DNA from: Escherichia phage vB_Eco_Jura
DNA: 64,000 bases
Sequence record: LR999871
Reading direction: 5' to 3' (one strand)
Below, one piece after another: positions 49,969 to 58,220 of the stretch (its first letter is position 1; every line of letters starts with the position of its first letter). The notes under the pieces are model-generated. The model was not told the origin of the DNA. It made no database searches and was given only the letters and a program-made list of their open reading frames with translations. Made by a program: the position numbers and the translations under genes.

Positions 49969-50004
49969 TAATTAATATGTTTAACCAATTTTGGAGAATA
50001 TGCG

Positions 50005-50817
50005 ATGTCTACTATCGAACATCAGATGCACCTCGAAAAGCTGTACAACAAGAACCAACTGTTACCAAGAATGCGTCAGGAGTTTGAAGAAAACTCTGGT
50101 ATTGATTTCAAAGCCTTCTTTGCACATATAGGCATTGATTACAAATTTGGCATTGATGCAATGGTTCAAATGGCTCTGCATAAGCGAGCTGACCTACCAA
50201 CATTAGTTGGTACATTGCGTCATCATTGCAAATCTGCACAGGAAGTAGCAGACAACCTTTTTAAGATGGCAAGTGAGGATTGCTTTAACTTTGACCCGAC
50301 CATCGACAAGTTCATTGTCATTTATACAATCAGCGATGACGTACAGCATGAACTGGATTCATTTCAATATCCACTACCTATGGTAGTACGTCCTAAGCTG
50401 TTAACTAAGAATTATGGTACTGGGTACTTCACATGTAATAAGAGTGTGATTCTTAAGAAGAACCATACTGACGATGACATCTGCTTAGACCATCTGAACC
50501 GTATGAACAAGATTCCATTGTCTATCAATTGGGATGTAGCTCATATGGTTAAAAATGAATGGGCTAATCTGGATAAACCGAAAGAAGGTGAAACTCGTCA
50601 GGAGTTTGAAAAACGTGTACGTGCATTCCAGAAATATGACCGTACTGCACATGAAGTAATGGGTTTATTGACCCAGGAAGGCAATAAGTTCTATCTGACT
50701 CATCGTCCGGATAAACGTGGTCGTACCTATTGCCAAGGTTATCATGTAACATACCAGGGAACTTCTTGGTGTAAAGCCGTGATTGAACTTGCTGATAAGG
50801 AACTTATCAATGATTAA
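50005..50817 (+). CDS. phage RNA polymerase, small (N-terminal-type) subunit, 270 aa
   Basis: ATG preceded by GGAGAA. Assigned from its pairing with the catalytic-subunit gene downstream and the 270/404-aa sizes I recall for the N4 two-subunit enzyme; no catalytic motif expected here. Confidence 0.55.
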   Translation: MSTIEHQMHLEKLYNKNQLLPRMRQEFEENSGIDFKAFFAHIGIDYKFGIDAMVQMALHKRADLPTLVGTLRHHCKSAQEVADNLFKMASEDCFNFDPTIDKFIVIYTISDDVQHELDSFQYPLPMVVRPKLLTKNYGTGYFTCNKSVILKKNHTDDDICLDHLNRMNKIPLSINWDVAHMVKNEWANLDKPKEGETRQEFEKRVRAFQKYDRTAHEVMGLLTQEGNKFYLTHRPDKRGRTYCQGYHVTYQGTSWCKAVIELADKELIND

Positions 50818-51319
50818 AGACAGAATGCCTATGGGTTACTGGAACAAACCAATAGAAGAATTAGCAATAGCTCACCCAAAAGAAGCTGCTAATAGTGCTA
50901 GTGGTTACATACGTATATCCAGAAACAATAGGATTCATTATTTACATCGTTGGTTGTGGGAACAAAAACATGGTGCTATCCCTGCTGGACACACCATTGA
51001 CCATCTTAATGGAATCCGGACTGATTGCCGTTGGGAAAACATGCGTTGTATCCCTTGGGCAATTAACTTACGTAATAGTACAAAGCGTGCTGATAACACG
51101 TCAGGAGTAACAGGTGTCTCACTATGGAAATCTCCAAAAGGAGTGTTCTGGAGAGCAACTTGTACTGACAACTTAACAGGAAAACAACGATGTAAGGTGT
51201 TTTCCATAAATAAATACGGTTACAACTTTGCATTTGAATTAGCATGTGATGCTCGTGCCGATATGATTGAACGCCTGAACCAACAAGGTGCAGGTTATAC
51301 CGACCGTCACGGTCAATAA
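50810..51319 (+). CDS. HNH homing endonuclease with AP2-like DNA-binding domain
   Basis: Track start 50783 trimmed to the ATG at 50810 (after AAGGA, overlapping the upstream stop). HNH core GHTIDHLNGIRTDCRWENMRCIPWAINLRN; C-terminal SGVTGVSLWKSPKGVFWRA is AP2-like. Confidence 0.75.
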   Translation: MIKDRMPMGYWNKPIEELAIAHPKEAANSASGYIRISRNNRIHYLHRWLWEQKHGAIPAGHTIDHLNGIRTDCRWENMRCIPWAINLRNSTKRADNTSGVTGVSLWKSPKGVFWRATCTDNLTGKQRCKVFSINKYGYNFAFELACDARADMIERLNQQGAGYTDRHGQ

Positions 51320-51331
51320 TCCCTATAAGCA

Positions 51332-51352
51332 GGCTCTCCATAGTGGGGAGCC
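51332..51352 (+). other. 8-bp hairpin in the RNA leader of the catalytic RNAP subunit gene
   Basis: GGCTCTCC/GGGGAGCC (one G-U) with loop ATAGT, followed by an A/G-rich SD region rather than a T tract. Confidence 0.4.
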
Positions 51353-51373
51353 AAGAAGCAAGAGGAATATACA

Positions 51374-52588
51374 ATGCAAACTTTTACTGCCCGTGAATAT
51401 CTGAAAATTGACATTGCTAATAACTATGGTCTGGATAAAGAAGACTGGGATGACCGTATTGCATGGTTCGATAAGAATGAGAACAACCTGCTGAACCTTG
51501 TAAGAGAAGCTGAAGAACCAGCCCTGTTCTATGCTGGTGTTAAAGCATGGATGGACGTTAAGGAAGGTAAGCCAATTGGTTATCCTGTTGCACTGGATGC
51601 TACATCATCTGGTCTACAGATTCTGGCTTGCCTGACTGGTGACCGTAGAGCTGCTGAACTATGTAACGTTGTTAACTATCGTGATGAAAGTGGCAAAGTT
51701 AAACGTCGTGATGCTTATACAGTTATCTACAACAAGATGCTGAACACTCTTGGTAAAGGTGCTCGTATCAAACGTAATGACTGTAAACAAGCAATCATGA
51801 CTGCTCTGTATGGTTCAGAGGCTAAACCAAAGGAAGTATTTGGTGAAGGCATTATGCTCAACGTATTTGAAAGCACAATGAATGTGGAAGCACCTGCTGT
51901 ATGGGAATTGAATAAATTCTGGTTACAGTGTGGTAATCCAGAGGCTTTCGTATATCACTGGGTAATGCCAGATGGCTTTAACGTATATATCAAAGTAATG
52001 GTAAATGAAGTGGAGACTGTCCACTTCTTAGATAAGCCGTATGACTGTGTTCGTAAAGTACAAGGTACTGAAGAGAAGACTCGTATGCTATCTGCCAATA
52101 CCACCCACTCTATTGATGGCCTAGTAGTACGTGAGCTGGTTCGTCGTTGTGACTATGACAAGAACCAGATTGAATACATCAAGGCTCTTTGCAATGGTGA
52201 AGCTGAATATAAGACTTCTGAAAAGAACTATGGCAAAGCAATGGAACTGTGGGGCTACTATGAGAAGACAGGATTCCTGACTGCTCGTATCTTTGATTAT
52301 CTGGATTCTGAAACTATTAAATTAGTAAATACTCAGGACATTCTAGACCTGATTGAATCCATGCCTAAGAAACCATTCCATGTACTCACTGTACATGACT
52401 GCTTCCGTTGCCTGCCTAACTATGGCAATGACATTCGTCGTCAGTACAACAACCTGTTAGCTACTATTGCTAAAGGTGACTTACTATCTTTCATTATGAG
52501 CCAGGTTCTAGGCCAAGAAGTTACTATTGGCAAACTAGACCCGACTCTATGGGAAGATGTATTAGAAACCGAATACGCTCTATCTTAA
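51374..52588 (+). CDS. phage RNA polymerase, catalytic subunit (T7-like palm), 404 aa
   Basis: ATG preceded by AGAGGAA. T7 RNAP-type motifs in order: PVALDATSSGLQ (motif A, D...SG-Q), RNDCKQAIMTALYGS (motif B, R-x3-K-x7-YG), VHDCF (motif C). Confidence 0.8.
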   Translation: MQTFTAREYLKIDIANNYGLDKEDWDDRIAWFDKNENNLLNLVREAEEPALFYAGVKAWMDVKEGKPIGYPVALDATSSGLQILACLTGDRRAAELCNVVNYRDESGKVKRRDAYTVIYNKMLNTLGKGARIKRNDCKQAIMTALYGSEAKPKEVFGEGIMLNVFESTMNVEAPAVWELNKFWLQCGNPEAFVYHWVMPDGFNVYIKVMVNEVETVHFLDKPYDCVRKVQGTEEKTRMLSANTTHSIDGLVVRELVRRCDYDKNQIEYIKALCNGEAEYKTSEKNYGKAMELWGYYEKTGFLTARIFDYLDSETIKLVNTQDILDLIESMPKKPFHVLTVHDCFRCLPNYGNDIRRQYNNLLATIAKGDLLSFIMSQVLGQEVTIGKLDPTLWEDVLETEYALS

Positions 52589-52594
52589 TAACTA

Positions 52595-52627
52595 AGGCTA
52601 TCCCTACGGGGGTAGCCTTTATTTTTT
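52595..52627 (+). terminator. strong rho-independent terminator after the RNAP genes
   Basis: 10-bp stem AGGCTATCCC/GGGGGTAGCCT (one G-U), loop TACG, then TTATTTTTTT. Confidence 0.7.
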
Positions 52628-52672
52628 TAGTAAATCATAATGGATAGGCATTTAACCTATGAGGAAATTAAA

Positions 52673-53512
52673 ATGCCTGTTCTTAAAGTGATGTTCCATA
52701 AAGACACCAACGTAGCTACTGTACTGGATGCCAGTGGTAGCCTTAGTGATGGTTCCGTTGAGGTGGGTACTTTCCATCATCCTGATGAAACCTATCCCGA
52801 TAGTGTAACTATCTATCATGGTGTACGTGACCTGCTGTATAAACGCAGTGCTAAAGACCCATCTCAAACTGCTTCTTACCCAAATAACATTATCAATATG
52901 CAAGTTATCAGTATTGATATGAAGGCAACTCCTCGCCTGATTTTGGGTACTGCATTGCCTCGTGTAATCTCTACTATTGAAGGTAAAGATGTAACCTGGC
53001 ATGTAGATGTTGCTGGTGGTAAAGCACCATTGACTTACAAGTGGCAGTTTAAAGCTAATACTGTAGGTGCTGCTTTCGCTGATATTGATTCCGGAGAGAA
53101 TCCTACAGCTAAAACTGCAACTCTTATTAATCATGCAGTAACTGCTGAATCTGCTGGTACTTATAAAGTCATCGTTACTGATGCTAACGGTACTACTATC
53201 GAGAGTTCTTCTCTGCTGGTTGTAGGAGTTCAGGAACCACCTGAAGTAGCTTCTATTGTTGCTTATCCAAGTCCACTGGCTCTATCAGTAGCTGATGATA
53301 TTACCAATGGTAAAACAGTTAAGTTTTCTTCCCTGCCTGCTGGCTCTTTGATTGGTACTCTGTCCATTAAGACCCAGCCTGACAGTGGTAAAGCTACTGC
53401 TGAGATTAGTGGTAATGTACTGACAGTTAAACCTGTAGCCGCAGGTGACACTACTGTAGTGGTCACCAACGGAACCAAGGAAGTAACTGTTACGGTTAAT
53501 GTTACAGAGTAA
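52673..53512 (+). CDS. Ig-like domain protein, capsid decoration candidate (279 aa)
   Basis: Track ATG at 52640 has no SD; ATG at 52673 follows GAGGAAA. Thr/Val/Ser-rich beta-strand pattern (VTAESAGTYKVIVTDANGTT; VTNGTKEVTVTVNVTE) typical of Ig-like (BIG2-type) domains. Confidence 0.6.
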   Translation: MPVLKVMFHKDTNVATVLDASGSLSDGSVEVGTFHHPDETYPDSVTIYHGVRDLLYKRSAKDPSQTASYPNNIINMQVISIDMKATPRLILGTALPRVISTIEGKDVTWHVDVAGGKAPLTYKWQFKANTVGAAFADIDSGENPTAKTATLINHAVTAESAGTYKVIVTDANGTTIESSSLLVVGVQEPPEVASIVAYPSPLALSVADDITNGKTVKFSSLPAGSLIGTLSIKTQPDSGKATAEISGNVLTVKPVAAGDTTVVVTNGTKEVTVTVNVTE

Positions 53513-53533
53513 TGTGATTGTTTTTATGAATGT

Positions 53534-53556
53534 AGCCCTCCTTGTGAGGGCTTTTT
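53534..53556 (+). terminator. rho-independent terminator
   Basis: Stem AGCCCTC/GAGGGCT, loop CTTGT, then TTTT. Confidence 0.65.
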
Positions 53557-53581
53557 AGTATCTATAGGAGAGTAAATAATT

Positions 53582-53896
53582 ATGGCTAATAAGAACCGTC
53601 TTCGTGTATGGCATATCCCTCAAGTACCCGGCAAAGCCTTCTATGTTGAAGTAGATTCAGTAGAAGAAGGTGTACGTATCATTGATATACTAGCCAACTA
53701 TGACCTATTCCAGTATGAGAACAATATCAAAGGTGATTACTGCAATGTCTCTGGTTTACAGATGTATGATGAACATATCACTGATGATGAAATGGAAGAG
53801 ATGGGTCTGACTGACCGTTGGGTAGACTGGTACTATGAAGATGACCAGAGCTTTTTTGATAACCCGAAAGAGTATTTGAATAATCTCAAGAAGTAA
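53582..53896 (+). CDS. acidic protein (104 aa), function unknown
   Basis: ATG preceded by AGGAGAG; Asp/Glu/Tyr-rich C-terminus. Confidence 0.6.
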   Translation: MANKNRLRVWHIPQVPGKAFYVEVDSVEEGVRIIDILANYDLFQYENNIKGDYCNVSGLQMYDEHITDDEMEEMGLTDRWVDWYYEDDQSFFDNPKEYLNNLKK

Positions 53897-53936
53897 TTTC
53901 TTGGGGTTAATGACCCTTATTAATTCCTTATCCTTT

Positions 53937-53959
53937 GCCCTCCTATGGAGGGCTTTTTT
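53937..53959 (+). terminator. rho-independent terminator
   Basis: Stem GCCCTCC/GGAGGGC, loop TAT, then TTTTTT; the ORF-track start at 53935 lies inside this hairpin and is rejected. Confidence 0.7.
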
Positions 53960-53970
53960 ACGGAGTACAA

Positions 53971-54177
53971 ATGTTTAAGTTCTTAGACCTTATCTGGGCA
54001 GTCATTTTGCTGGTTGCTACAGGCTTTGTATATGGCTTCTTGCTCCCATCAATGATGTCTGCTTTAGACAGCATCATTGTTGTTATGGGCTTGATAGTCT
54101 GTATTGTGTGGCCTCTTATCGTAGGCCGTATCGTTTATCTTACAGTTAAGAAAAGGATGAGAAGAAAACATGTATAA
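53971..54177 (+). CDS. small two-TM membrane protein (68 aa), partner of the SPFH gene
   Basis: ATG preceded by ACGGAG; two hydrophobic helices and a basic C-terminus (KKRMRRKHV); 3' end overlaps the SPFH gene start. Confidence 0.5.
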   Translation: MFKFLDLIWAVILLVATGFVYGFLLPSMMSALDSIIVVMGLIVCIVWPLIVGRIVYLTVKKRMRRKHV

Positions 54178-55006
54178 GTACATTGCAGTAGCAATTGCAG
54201 GGCTAATCATTGCTCTAAGTTTAACGAGCTGCTATGACCGAGTTGAACCAGGTAATGTAGGTATTATCGTTAATCGTCTCGGTGAAGATAAAGGTGTGGA
54301 AAATGAGGTTAAAGGTGTAGGCCGTTACTGGCTCACTTGGAATGAAGAACTTTATACATTCCCGACCTTTAAGCAGATGAAGACCTATGATGGTCTGTTT
54401 TACTTCCAACTGTCTGATGGTACTCAGATAGGCCACCAGATGGCTATCAGCTATAAAGTGAACCCTACTAAGGTAACTAATATCTTCCAGACGTATCGTA
54501 AGGGAGTTAATGAAATTACCGAGCAGGATTTACGACAACGTATTGCTGATGTACTTAACAGACAGGGTAACCTGATTAACACTGATACATTTATTGATGG
54601 TGGTAAATCTAAGCTACTGGATAGTGTCACTGACACAATCCGTAAAGAGATGGAACCAGTAGGGATTGATATTATTGCTATCTCCTGGATTGGTGCTCCT
54701 GAATACCCTGATAATGTTAAACGTGCCATTAATGCCAAAGTAGAAGCTACTCAGAAAACTCTGCAACGTGAGCAAGAGATTCAGCAACGTGTAGCTGAAG
54801 CTAATATGGAACGTGAACAAGCTAAGGGTGTAGCAGATGCTATCCTGATTAAAGCTAAAGCAGAGGCTGATGCTATTCGTTTACGTGGTGAAGCACTCAC
54901 CGAGAACCCAAATGTAATGCAACTGGAAGCCATTAATAAGTGGAATGGTACATTACCTACCACAATGATTCCTGGGGCTACTACACCTTTCGTTAATGTG
55001 AAATAA
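54170..55006 (+). CDS. SPFH/band-7 (stomatin/prohibitin/HflK-C-like) lipoprotein
   Basis: N-terminal lipoprotein signal IAGLIIALSLTSC; SPFH-type core (VEPGNVGIIVNRLGE ... ISYKVNP) followed by an Ala/Glu/Gln-rich coiled coil (QREQEIQQRVAEANMEREQAKGVADAILIKAKAEADAIRLRGEA). Confidence 0.6.
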   Translation: MYKYIAVAIAGLIIALSLTSCYDRVEPGNVGIIVNRLGEDKGVENEVKGVGRYWLTWNEELYTFPTFKQMKTYDGLFYFQLSDGTQIGHQMAISYKVNPTKVTNIFQTYRKGVNEITEQDLRQRIADVLNRQGNLINTDTFIDGGKSKLLDSVTDTIRKEMEPVGIDIIAISWIGAPEYPDNVKRAINAKVEATQKTLQREQEIQQRVAEANMEREQAKGVADAILIKAKAEADAIRLRGEALTENPNVMQLEAINKWNGTLPTTMIPGATTPFVNVK

Positions 55007-55013
55007 CTAAGCA

Positions 55014-55042
55014 AACCCACCATTACGGTGGGTTTATTTTTT
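55014..55042 (+). terminator. rho-independent terminator
   Basis: Stem AACCCACC/GGTGGGTT, loop ATTAC, then TTATTTTTT. Confidence 0.7.
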
Positions 55043-55068
55043 GAAGTTATCTAACACTGGGTATTCCT

Positions 55069-55293
55069 ATGAAAGTAAATATTTTACGCCGTAAGAAAGT
55101 TCCTTTCTTTCAAATCAATTGTGGTTCATGCTTTCAACACGATGATGACTACTATATGAAGTGTAGTTATCAATCCAAAGAACACTTCTATGGTGTGAAT
55201 TTACAAACAGGTCATCTGTTCACATTTGATAATAATGACTTTGTTTATCCTGTGACCTTAGAAGCATGTATTCCTGACCCATTTAATAAATAG
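55069..55293 (+). CDS. hypothetical protein (74 aa)
   Basis: ATG-initiated; weak SD; Cys/His-containing. Confidence 0.45.
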   Translation: MKVNILRRKKVPFFQINCGSCFQHDDDYYMKCSYQSKEHFYGVNLQTGHLFTFDNNDFVYPVTLEACIPDPFNK

Positions 55294-55294
55294 T

Positions 55295-55651
55295 ATGGCT
55301 CAAGAAAAGAATCGTCGTCAGACACTTATCGAACGTATTCAGGCCAGAATCAAATTACAGGACTTAGGCTATACCGTTAATGGTCAGCCTAGTCTCTGTC
55401 ACATCTGGACTGGTTCACATTCAGGTAATGGACGTGGTGGGCAATATGGCAGGATTTCCGTGAATGGAGTTACCTCTGCAACTCACATTATTGCCTATAC
55501 CCATTATCATGGTTATATCCCCAATAAGATGCAAGTAGACCATCTCTGTAATAATCGTCTGTGCTGTAACCCTGAACATCTTGAATTGGTTACTCACCAA
55601 GAGAACCAGAGAAGAAGGGCTAAGCGTTCTAAATCTAAAGGAAATAAATAA
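55295..55651 (+). CDS. HNH endonuclease (second copy)
   Basis: ATG 2 nt after the upstream stop; HIWTGSHSGNGRGGQYGRISVNG ... VDHLCNNRLCCNPEHLELVTHQENQRR is a typical HNH nuclease core with a basic tail. Confidence 0.7.
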   Translation: MAQEKNRRQTLIERIQARIKLQDLGYTVNGQPSLCHIWTGSHSGNGRGGQYGRISVNGVTSATHIIAYTHYHGYIPNKMQVDHLCNNRLCCNPEHLELVTHQENQRRRAKRSKSKGNK

Positions 55652-55822
55652 ATGATTAAAAAACTTATTTGTAAACTTATTGCAGCAATCTTAATTAGTA
55701 TTATTGGTATTGCATGGGTAATTTCTACTCCAGATAACGTTATGCAACAAATTTATTATGCTGTGTATACATCAACCTCTTTTGTTTGGGTTTATGTAAT
55801 GTACCGTATTTGTAGCGACTAA
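55652..55822 (+). CDS. candidate small membrane protein (56 aa), absent from the ORF track
   Basis: ATG right after the HNH stop with AAGGAAA upstream; MIKKLICKLIAAILISIIGIAWVISTPDNVMQQIYYAVYTSTSFVWVYVMYRICSD, two hydrophobic segments. Confidence 0.4.
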   Translation: MIKKLICKLIAAILISIIGIAWVISTPDNVMQQIYYAVYTSTSFVWVYVMYRICSD

Positions 55823-55851
55823 TACTTAATATAGCTTAACTGGAGAGTAAA

Positions 55852-56910
55852 ATGGCTAGTATTGATTCTATTGCCGTATGTAATCCACGGCAGGTACGTA
55901 AATTTGTTGAACACTGTATCCGTTCAGGATTGGTTCCATTTATCACTTCATCTCCTGGTATGGGTAAATCTGCAATTGTTCATCAGATTGCAGAAGATTT
56001 TGGTCTGAAACTGATTGACCATCGTCTGTCTACTTCAGCACCAGAAGACCTGTCAGGTCTGCCTCGTTTTAAAGAAAATGGTCGTGCTGAATTTGCTCCA
56101 TTTGACGAGCTATTCCCACTGGAAGGGGATACTGTACCTGAAGGATTTAATGGCTGGCTCCTTTTTCTCGATGAGTTTAACTCTGCTCGTAAAGAGATTC
56201 AGGCTGCTGCTTATAAACTGGTACTCGACCGTATGACTGGTCAGAAGAAGCTACATCCTTATGTAGCTATCGTATGTGCTGGTAACAAAGCAACTGACCG
56301 TGCCATTACTAATAACCTGTCTACAGCTATGCAATCACGCCTTATTCATCTGGAAATGGAGACTGATTTTGATGTCTTTATGGAAGATGTAGCTATCCCT
56401 AACAAGTGGGATGAACGTGTAATTGCATTCCTGAATGCTAACCCAAATAAACTGAATGATTTTGAACCAGACCATCAAGAGAAGACTTTCTGTTGTTCTC
56501 GTACATGGGAGTTCGTTAACAAGATTGTTTCCATTCTCCCACCGGGACCGATTGATAGTGAAATGACTCTGCTGTTAGCAGGCACTATCACTTCTGGTGT
56601 AGCAACATCATTCGTCCAGTTTACTCAGGTCTATAGCAACATGGTGTCTTTGAATGAGATTTTGGATAATCCTAAGAAAGCTCGTATGCCTGAAGACAAT
56701 AACCTGTTGTGGGCTGTAGTCACTTCACTAATTAACAATACTGACGAAGATAATCATTCGAAAATCTTTGATTACGTTGAACGTATGCCGTTTACGTTCA
56801 AGGTTTTGTACTACCGTTCTGTAGGTAGTTTGGTTCCAGCTTTGGTTAAATTACCAAACTGGCGTGTTGCTGCAATCACATTATCTAAATACGTTCATGG
56901 TTCCAATTAA
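55852..56910 (+). CDS. AAA+ ATPase, MoxR-like
   Basis: ATG preceded by GGAGAG; Walker A SSPGMGKSAIV, Walker B LLFLDEFN, sensor-like VCAGN. Confidence 0.75.
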   Translation: MASIDSIAVCNPRQVRKFVEHCIRSGLVPFITSSPGMGKSAIVHQIAEDFGLKLIDHRLSTSAPEDLSGLPRFKENGRAEFAPFDELFPLEGDTVPEGFNGWLLFLDEFNSARKEIQAAAYKLVLDRMTGQKKLHPYVAIVCAGNKATDRAITNNLSTAMQSRLIHLEMETDFDVFMEDVAIPNKWDERVIAFLNANPNKLNDFEPDHQEKTFCCSRTWEFVNKIVSILPPGPIDSEMTLLLAGTITSGVATSFVQFTQVYSNMVSLNEILDNPKKARMPEDNNLLWAVVTSLINNTDEDNHSKIFDYVERMPFTFKVLYYRSVGSLVPALVKLPNWRVAAITLSKYVHGSN

Positions 56911-57076
56911 CAAGAAAGGAGTTACAGACCTCCTGTATGTTGCTGGCTTTAACGGTGAAGAAATTACCGTATATGCCCCAAGTCTGGCTGCTGCTAAACA
57001 AAAGGCAGTTGAATACTTTCGTCCAAAGAAACGTGTAGCCCATACTATTTGGGTTCATCTCGCAGAGGAAAACTGA
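56864..57076 (+). CDS. questionable small ORF (70 aa by track)
   Basis: Track start is TTG; the only in-frame ATG (56897) lacks an SD and lies inside the ATPase 3' end. Confidence 0.2.
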   Translation: MLLQSHYLNTFMVPINKKGVTDLLYVAGFNGEEITVYAPSLAAAKQKAVEYFRPKKRVAHTIWVHLAEEN

Positions 57077-57077
57077 T

Positions 57078-58220
57078 ATGTCCATGACAGATGCTCAATT
57101 AACCCGTGAATATGACAGATGTCAGGCTAAAGCCTTTATGGGCAAAACTGCTGCATTCTTTGGTTCACTGTTATGTTCTCTGAAGTTCCGTTGGGTAAAA
57201 GATGGCTGTGATACAGCACAAACCGATGGTGAGCATCTCGAATGGAATCCTGATTGGTTTGAGAGTCTATTACCTGAATCTCGTGTAACAGTACTCATGC
57301 ATGAACTATGGCATGTCGGCTTACTGCATTCTGTTCGTATGGGTTCTCGTGACCCAGAAGTATGGAATTATGCCTGTGATATTTATATCAACAATCAGCT
57401 TATTCAGGATGGCTACAGCTTTATAGGAATCGAAAATTGCTGGAAAGACCCTAAGTATGCTGGTTGGGCTGAAGAACAAATCTATGATGACCTCATGAGC
57501 AAACAGATACGTCCTCCTAAAGCATCAGGTGCTTTTGGGACTGGCTCAGGTGGTGACATGAAACCTTCCACTTCGAAGGCTAGTCAGGTGAATATTGTCA
57601 ATAATGTAGTAAGAGCCATGCACCAACAGAAACTATCTGGTGGTTCTTTGCCTGGGGTATTACCTGGAAAAATGGAAGAAGTTATTACTCAATTCCTGAA
57701 ACCAGTAGTACCGTGGCAGGTTTTACTTGAACGCTTCTTCAATGACCTGCAAGAAACTTACTACTCATGGCAACGGCCTAATCGTAGATACCCTGATATG
57801 TACCTACCATCCCCTATGGATGATGACGGTAGACTGGAACATCTGGCTTATTTCCTCGATACATCTGGCTCCATTAAACCTAAAGATGCTTTACGCTTTA
57901 GCTCTGAAGTGGCCTATGTAAAAGAGAAATATCAGCCTCAGAAGATGACTCTAGTTCAGTTCACTACAGAGATTGTAGATGAACAAGTCGTTGAAGATGG
58001 TGATAAGTTTACTGATGTCACTATCAAAGGACGAGGTGGTACTAGTCTGGTTCCTGTACGTGAGTGGATTATTAAGCATAAGCCTACTGCTGCCATTATC
58101 TTTACTGACTTAGAAGTCAGACCGATGGAACCATTGCCATTTGATATTCCTGTCATATGGGTAGTTATTCGTAACCCTGGTGCACAAGTTCCATTTGGGA
58201 AAGTTATTAACATTACATGA
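57078..58220 (+). CDS. vWA-domain protein with N-terminal HExxH metallopeptidase-like motif (MoxR partner)
   Basis: ATG preceded by GAGGAAAA; N-terminal VLMHELWHVGLLH (HExxH); C-terminal vWA MIDAS-like LAYFLDTSGSIKPKD. Confidence 0.7.
   Translation: MSMTDAQLTREYDRCQAKAFMGKTAAFFGSLLCSLKFRWVKDGCDTAQTDGEHLEWNPDWFESLLPESRVTVLMHELWHVGLLHSVRMGSRDPEVWNYACDIYINNQLIQDGYSFIGIENCWKDPKYAGWAEEQIYDDLMSKQIRPPKASGAFGTGSGGDMKPSTSKASQVNIVNNVVRAMHQQKLSGGSLPGVLPGKMEEVITQFLKPVVPWQVLLERFFNDLQETYYSWQRPNRRYPDMYLPSPMDDDGRLEHLAYFLDTSGSIKPKDALRFSSEVAYVKEKYQPQKMTLVQFTTEIVDEQVVEDGDKFTDVTIKGRGGTSLVPVREWIIKHKPTAAIIFTDLEVRPMEPLPFDIPVIWVVIRNPGAQVPFGKVINIT

Follow-up and report, generated by a model that had tools for sequence, protein, structure and literature searches.

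The HNH endonuclease gene gp22 of N4-type Escherichia phages is an old resident of Schitoviridae genomes

The small HNH endonuclease gene gp22 of Escherichia phage vB_Eco_Jura represents an ancient resident lineage of Schitoviridae, which is fixed within genera and mostly inherited vertically. The gene was flagged in a preliminary description of a window of 64,000 nucleotides (the whole stretch of DNA analysed, sequence record LR999871), where it was taken, together with another HNH gene within 5 kb, as a sign of repeated invasion by selfish nuclease genes. This reading suits the other gene, here called HNH1, and not gp22.

Positions 54900–56000 of the window are 98.6–99.9% identical in nucleotide sequence to 15 Escherichia phage N4-type genomes (Enquatrovirus), and the window is by this measure an N4-type genome itself. 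The free-standing HNH gene of 118 codons was recovered exactly where it had been described (Table 1), with a match to HNH_3. Its product is 100% identical to gp22 of phage N4 (YP_950500, annotated as "endonuclease" or "putative homing endonuclease"), the position between gp21 and gp23 is likewise shared, and the two are the same gene with no difference between them. The genome paper on N4-like roseophages (PMC2784036) names N4 gp22 as a putative HNH or homing endonuclease. The finding of the gene is in this respect ordinary, the HNH endonuclease gene of N4 being already known and annotated. The literature found on the function, expression or essentiality of gp22 consists of genome annotations, and no functional study was found. 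The neighbours in the N4 reference are gp20 (an SPFH lipoprotein), gp21, gp23 and gp24 (an ATPase). The description of the gene as lying between accessory genes holds in the window, where gp20 and gp21 are found upstream and gp23, then gp24, downstream. No Rfam match at E ≤ 0.1 was found in 50000–58000 and no notable repeats in 54900–56000.

Table 1. Features of the window discussed in the text, with their positions and the evidence for each.
Feature	Coordinates	Strand	Description	Evidence
HNH1	50783..51319	+	HNH_3+AP2, 178 aa; between RNAPII subunit genes gp15 and gp16	Pfam
Intrinsic terminator hairpin after gp20	55013..55035	+	9-bp stem, 5 GC pairs, ATTTTTT tail	
gp21	55069..55293	+	74 aa, unknown function; first gene after terminator	PHROG 7431
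gp22	55295..55651	+	Predicted 118-aa single-domain HNH_3 / His-Me-finger endonuclease	ORF, Pfam, PHROG, AF2, Foldseek
Catalytic beta-beta-alpha-metal core of gp22	55541..55606	+	H83, C85-x4-C90-x4-H95, N104	Invariant in 43 homologues, I-PpoI alignment
gp23	55652..55822	+	56-aa small membrane protein	ORF, PHROG 23946, hydropathy
gp24	55852..56910	+	AAA ATPase	Weak Pfam AAA_5/AAA matches; N4 annotation; synteny in ~40 loci

The gp22 protein matches the Pfam family HNH_3 (PF13392; E=8.6e-20, 70.6 bits for a cut-off of 24.8) and zf-His_Me_endon (E=1.5e-6, 28.8 bits for a cut-off of 27). No other Pfam family was matched at E ≤ 0.01; none of the accessory DNA-binding modules AP2, NUMOD and IENR1 was detected by Pfam, which found the nuclease domain alone. 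The protein also matches PHROG 1872, "endonuclease" (E=5.5e-46). The AlphaFold (AF2) model, with a pLDDT of 91.5, consists of strands 79–83 and 96–100 followed by helix 101–116, as is required of a beta-beta-alpha-metal fold. The top PDB matches of the model found by Foldseek are I-PpoI (E 1.4e-3, prob 1.00, TM 0.48) and I-HmuI, with SMAD MH1 domains ranking next. Across 43 aligned homologues, 16 positions are invariant, including the HNH catalytic residues D82, H83, N92 and N104, as well as C35 (codon 55397–55399), C85, C90 and H95. In a profile alignment, H83, C85, C90, H95 and N104 fall on the I-PpoI motif SHLCHNTRCHNPLHL...N with identical spacing; the E-value of this profile match is weak (0.37), but the alignment agrees with the fold match. 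Kringle matches returned by a single-sequence PDB search with gp22 were discarded as due to chance, and profile and fold searches were required.

Profile, fold and the conserved catalytic and zinc residues all place gp22 in the HNH / His-Me-finger superfamily. The invariant residues, the AF2 model and the fold and profile matches together identify gp22 as a His-Me-finger nuclease of one domain, which has a zinc site like that of I-PpoI and lacks any accessory DNA-binding domain. Judging from the fold and the invariant residues, H83 would be the general base that activates water, D82 and N104 would hold the catalytic divalent metal, and C35, C85, C90 and H95 would be the ligands of a structural zinc. 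The superfamily is huge: 53,694 cluster representatives match at E ≤ 1e-10, of which 199 remain at E ≤ 1e-30. Among the top library matches of the gp22 profile, many (P0117, P0119–P0122 and others) are proteins of 250–610 aa with 2–5 tandem HNH_3 cores.

I-PpoI, a His-Cys box homing endonuclease (PDB 1cyq/1a74), shares with gp22 the H-x-C-x4-C-x4-H...N motif, the spacing of which implies a common zinc site and common catalytic His and Asn residues. I-PpoI is a eukaryotic, intron-encoded protein of 162 aa with a second zinc site, whereas gp22 is free-standing, has 118 aa and is about 18% identical. I-PpoI acts as a homodimer that recognises a long rDNA site. I-HmuI, the intron-encoded HNH nicking endonuclease of phage SPO1 (PDB 1u3e), has the HNH His-Me-finger fold and the DH...N arrangement in common with gp22. 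This protein of 174 aa carries extra C-terminal DNA-binding modules, whereas gp22 consists of the nuclease core and a basic C-terminal tail alone. I-HmuI is a monomer with one active site that nicks one strand. By analogy, I-HmuI-like nicking of one strand is predicted for gp22. Because there is one active site and no extra DNA-binding module, the monomer would nick one strand, and both strands would be cut only by a dimer.

The sequence of gp22 is distinct from that of HNH1, as the preliminary description had it, the two being only 32% identical over a stretch of 62 catalytic-core residues. HNH1 is absent from all 15 Enquatrovirus records, which match positions 50300–51900 in two pieces (1089 nt, against 1601 nt in the window). 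In comparison with vB_Eco_SPSP, positions 50803–51361 of the window, an insertion of 559 bp, stand in place of 47 bp. About 27 mismatches crowd at 50682–50809, within the 3'-terminal ~130 bp of gp15; elsewhere over 7 kb the identity is 99.0–99.8%. This cluster of mismatches in the gp15 flank looks like a donor-derived or co-conversion tract.

Relatives of HNH1 occur in only nine phage records, and the closest all lie at the gp15/gp16 junction. The nucleases found there in UE-M3, UE-S5a and UE-M6 are 77.5% identical to HNH1, and that of Burkholderia HN03 58.7%. Two contigs, L091 (79%) and L047 (64%), have an HNH1-type nuclease at the same junction; the amino acid identity is 77–79% in the Gamaleyavirus-like phages, and an unrelated HNH is present at this place in G7C. 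The split-RNAPII junction between gp15 and gp16 is a hotspot of homing. An association of homing endonucleases with two-subunit RNAPs had already been proposed (PMC5418858). By its insertion, absent from 15 relatives, and the mismatches in the adjacent flank, HNH1 fits the idea of invasion, and has all the appearance of a recent mobile insertion, a textbook homing event. Free-standing phage HNH genes such as HNH1, ST15.1 and gp24.1 of G7C and those of the T4 Mob proteins have the superfamily and the presence/absence variation in common with gp22. HNH1 is sporadic, restricted to one junction and provided with an AP2 domain, whereas gp22 is widespread, fixed within genera and devoid of accessory domain.

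The gp22 gene was found at the same site in 15 of 15 sequenced Enquatrovirus records. A tblastn census (E ≤ 1e-22) detected gp22-type genes in 232 phage records, with one full-length copy each (one location that spans 80% or more of the gp22 protein), compared with 452 N4-like records for the RNAPII large subunit gp16. Sorted by genus name, the records with gp22 relative to those with gp16 amount to 90/100 for Pseudomonas, 17/17 for Achromobacter, 14/14 for Pectobacterium, 10/10 for Stenotrophomonas, 16/21 for Erwinia, 23/29 for Klebsiella and only 17/68 for Escherichia. For Vibrio they are at most 6/92, some or all of these six being ~38-kb phages that are not N4-like. The gene is therefore outside the Schitoviridae core gene set, about half of the family being without it. 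In Litunavirus, 70 of 75 records have gp22, and the other five are fragments or belong to another genus; gp22 is fixed in this genus as it is in Enquatrovirus. In lineages with a gp16 only 31–60% identical to that of N4, gp22 is 52–62% identical, and it ranks among the best-conserved non-core proteins of Schitoviridae.

The age of gp22 was assessed by comparing N4, Moo19 and KP8. The synonymous divergence (pS) of gp22 is 0.57–0.79, against 0.63–0.77 for gp15, gp16, gp24, gp25 and gp26, so that all are equally saturated. As this saturation equals that of core genes, gp22 has co-diverged with the core genome, and a recent invasion is excluded on this measure. The non-synonymous divergence (dN) is 0.08–0.11 for gp22, 2–3 times lower than the 0.18–0.35 of the same five genes, and dN/dS is 0.05–0.08. 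Of the genes in the region, gp22 is the one most strongly constrained by purifying selection. Pairwise identities of gp22 and gp16 are correlated (Mantel p~0.001), with a low Spearman coefficient of 0.32 because the gp22 identity plateaus near 60%; the coefficient is 0.80 for the comparison pair gp16 and gp24. Clusters of gp22 mostly track the gp16 clades. The exception is Littlefix, the gp22 of which is 78% identical to that of clade-1 Pseudomonas phages, although gp16 is 30% identical; this discordance points to one clear horizontal transfer.

The position of gp22 was compared in 80 IMG/VR loci fetched with the gp22 profile. About 40 are Schitoviridae loci with the HNH gene between gp16/gp17 and gp24, and these include Pectobacterium- and Klebsiella-type phages with a gp16 about 30% identical. 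In Litunavirus, the gp22-type gene lies between the DNA polymerase/dCMP deaminase genes and rIIA; it follows rIIB in roseophages and rIIA in Littlefix. About 25 loci have no other N4 gene within 20 kb, yet their gp22 copies are 43–64% identical. In several of the six non-N4-like loci that were inspected by eye, from the N-termini, the HNH gene is beside large polymerase-, primase- or helicase-like ORFs. In the N4 genome of 70 kb, gp22 is found at 9.4 kb, among early/middle genes. It belongs to the variable gp17–gp24 island of small membrane and accessory genes, including gp18 (superinfection exclusion), gp19 and gp20, of which gp24, a conserved Schitoviridae gene, is the downstream anchor.

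Several genes around gp22 call for separate comment. The pair formed by the gp19 membrane protein and gp20 SPFH lipoprotein genes (53935–55006) adjoins gp22-type HNH genes in several lineages (L036, 10324–11400; L038, 10652–11700; also L037, L044 and L046). The gp20 protein is 79–85% identical to that of N4 in Pectobacterium- and Klebsiella-type phages with a gp16 only 30–33% identical. This suggests that N4-like phages of enterobacteria have swapped the gp19–gp20 cassette horizontally, and not together with the HNH gene, since gp22 is only 53–62% identical; a recent joint movement of gp22 and the cassette was ruled out on the same ground. Further downstream, gp25 (57078–58220) is labelled "HNH endonuclease" by RefSeq in N4 (NC_008720), as are Moo19 gp38 and KP8 gp036. 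Pfam finds in gp25 a metallopeptidase-like DUF2201_N and a VWA-like DUF2201 (E=1.3e-86 and 1.9e-46) and no HNH match, and the label is probably a propagated misannotation.

Annotation is also confused in Litunavirus. In vB_Pae1396P-5 (L006, 3753–4339), the depositors have a 192-nt "HNH endonuclease" (4148–4339) and an overlapping 399-nt ORF (3753–4151, "ferredoxin" or hypothetical), where tblastn finds a single intact gp22-type frame of 111 residues (4001–4333). The homologue of the 399-nt ORF in Ka4 has 97 aa, and the long 3' end in Litunavirus thus enters the HNH region. The dCMP deaminase gene of the same phage (3072–3521) is 98–100% identical to that of Ka4 (L134, ~3640–4090), while the surroundings are 55–80% identical. 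The two genera have thus recently exchanged a segment the size of one gene, which lies about 400 bp upstream of the HNH site. It was considered whether a recombination tract ends at the boundary of the Litunavirus HNH gene; this was rejected, as the block of high identity is the dCMP deaminase gene and the identity drops to 0.56–0.73 before the boundary.

The presence/absence variation expected of a mobile gene was found between genera and not within them. G7C and other Gamaleyavirus-like contigs are without gp22, the whole gp18–gp23 block being replaced in G7C. In Luzseptimavirus Ka4, of the sister genus of Litunavirus, gp22 is missing from the syntenic site, where homologous flanks are separated by 98 bp instead of the 392 bp of Litunavirus. 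A natural deletion of 1.55 kb was found in a KP8-like metagenomic contig (L133, 4001–4255; Logan SRR32829898). It joins residues 1–50 of the HNH protein to the last ~34 residues of the homologue of KP8 gp034, across a short microhomology, GTATG. The catalytic half of the nuclease is gone, five small genes are taken out, and the fusion ORF comes directly before gp24. From the absence in Gamaleyavirus, the absence in Ka4 as against the fixation in Litunavirus, and the KP8-like deletion, gp22 is an accessory, non-essential gene, open to loss, relocation and occasional transfer.

In the window, the stop codon of gp21 is 1 nt before the ATG of gp22, and the ATG of gp23 directly follows the TAA stop of gp22. 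Among the loci examined, gp21 occurs in N4 loci only. The terminator after gp20 is also annotated in vB_Eco_SPSP and AL25, and no strong terminator was found before gp24 in the scan. Because of this terminator, the lack of a strong one before gp24, and the abutting of gp21, gp22 and gp23, the arrangement suggests that gp21–gp22–gp23–gp24 form one transcription unit starting after the gp20 terminator, probably with translational coupling from gp21 to gp22 and from gp22 to gp23. Strong intrinsic terminators also follow gp16 (52594–52619), gp17 (53534–53552) and gp18 (53937–53953). As 13 terminator-like sites are found in 6 kb, for 3.7 expected, the accessory genes between 52594 and 55035 would be insulated as single- or two-gene units.

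With modest confidence, we read gp22 as an ancient, resident and active homing-type endonuclease that is kept by selection through a persistent role in homing or exclusion. Expressed from the gp21–gp24 unit, it would cut or nick the DNA of co-infecting related phages that lack the gene or have a sensitive site. Such cutting would bias inheritance toward the genomic neighbourhood of gp22, by homing or marker exclusion, and this bias would keep the nuclease under selection. The presence/absence variation between related genera, the varied positions, the one transfer outlier and the one deletion allele are what is left of the idea of a selfish element once recent invasion is removed from it. Several observations speak against homing. 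Close relatives have no empty-site allele, and gp22 is not surrounded by a co-conversion tract. Typical site-specific free-standing homing endonucleases have AP2, NUMOD or IENR1 modules, which are missing from gp22. A purely selfish element would not usually co-diverge vertically for so long at so low a dN/dS, and a domesticated function fits this record equally well. Of the marks by which a homing gene is recognised, intrageneric empty sites, recent acquisition and an accessory DNA-binding domain were all lacking in gp22.

The homing or exclusion role is nevertheless favoured, on sequence comparisons, over a domesticated metabolic role, which is possible and less probable. The nuclease would then have been co-opted long ago for a benefit to the phage unrelated to its own spread, and ordinary selection acting on the phage would maintain it. 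It might nick DNA so as to start or resolve recombination-dependent replication, process replication intermediates, or attack the DNA of the host or of competitors. Purifying selection stronger than anywhere else in the region and co-divergence with core genes would be expected of such a protein, as would its maintenance as a single full-length copy in 232 genomes, an invariant active site, a macro-position conserved over deep divergence, and a higher conservation than that of RNAPII. The company of rIIA/rIIB, DNA polymerase and dCMP deaminase genes in other lineages, and of the polymerase-, primase- or helicase-like ORFs in some non-N4 contigs, is also in keeping with domestication. Such a function is harder to reconcile with the absence of gp22 from roughly one half of Schitoviridae, among them sister genera that share the rest of the gene set, with the natural deletion variant and the changing position, and with the occurrence of the same subfamily at similar identity in unrelated phages. 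We know of no N4 replication or packaging function that maps to gp22. More specifically, gp22 could be a domesticated nickase and not a parasite, retained through most of the history of Schitoviridae for replication nicking or as an anti-competitor weapon, with the turnover of gp17–gp24 resulting from the recombination that it stimulates; this version is offered tentatively.

It is improbable that gp22 invaded recently as a selfish homing endonuclease, in one of two independent and recent events within 5 kb. In favour of this, the HNH_3 domain is typical of free-standing homing endonucleases, the nearby HNH1 is truly a recent insertion, and gp22 does vary in presence between genera. Conservation at the locus with no empty-site allele, which the preliminary description had itself named as the observation that would count against invasion, is what was found among close relatives, both in Enquatrovirus (15/15) and in Litunavirus (70/75). 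The orthologues in Moo19 and KP8 have a synonymous divergence as saturated as that of the flanking core genes, and the distribution is family-wide with conserved macro-synteny. No co-conversion tract was seen around gp22. A single difference from the N4 prototype occurs in the 357 nt of the gene, against 1.8–3.3% in the flanks, which was considered as a signal of a sweep or gene conversion and found not significant: in a sliding window over 12.6 kb, equally deep troughs occur elsewhere, and the gap at gp22 is only the fourth longest.

A role in packaging, in which gp22 would cut concatemers with the terminase in the manner of HK97 gp74, is very improbable. HK97 gp74-type HNH proteins are small, single-domain and kept by selection like gp22 (~120 aa, a single HNH domain). 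The gp22 gene is away from packaging genes: none of the ~55 Schitoviridae loci examined has a terminase or portal gene adjoining it, and no packaging-like gene was seen by eye beside the HNH gene in several of the six non-N4-like loci. Packaging-type HNH proteins belong to PF01844, and gp22 matched only HNH_3 and zf-His_Me_endon. The half of the family that lacks gp22 packages its DNA the same way.

The preliminary description also had gp22 immediately followed by an ORF for a 56-aa peptide with two transmembrane (TM) segments. Position, size and one clear TM segment (residues ~5–27, strongly hydrophobic, Kyte-Doolittle mean up to 2.85) stand; the second segment (residues ~33–52) is aromatic and weakly hydrophobic, with a maximum of ~1.0, although the KP8 homologue was annotated as 2-TM by its depositors. 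The protein is N4 gp23 and matches PHROG 23946 over its full length (E=3.9e-37). Homologues were found only in Enquatrovirus and KP8-like phages. It is very improbable that gp22 and gp23 form a functional two-gene module, such as a nuclease tethered to or regulated by the membrane, or a toxin/immunity-like pair. The two genes do abut, and a small TM ORF always follows the HNH gene in Enquatrovirinae. In Moo19 and KP8, however, this follower is no homologue of N4 gp23, and the gp23 homologue of KP8 is two genes downstream of the HNH gene. A small TM ORF of any kind is downstream in only 11 of 77 loci, on which count a conserved module of HNH and mini-ORF was rejected, and small membrane or accessory genes (gp18, gp19, gp20) are a general feature of this island. 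On this comparison, gp23 would be a lineage-specific membrane peptide, an operon-mate and not a functional partner of the nuclease.

An HNH gene flanked by accessory genes need not be a recent selfish insertion: the window holds both a recent invader, HNH1, and an old resident, gp22. If gp22 is a competition nuclease or a replication nickase, this would explain the long retention of so small a nuclease, and might explain why gp17–gp24 is a hotspot of gene turnover.
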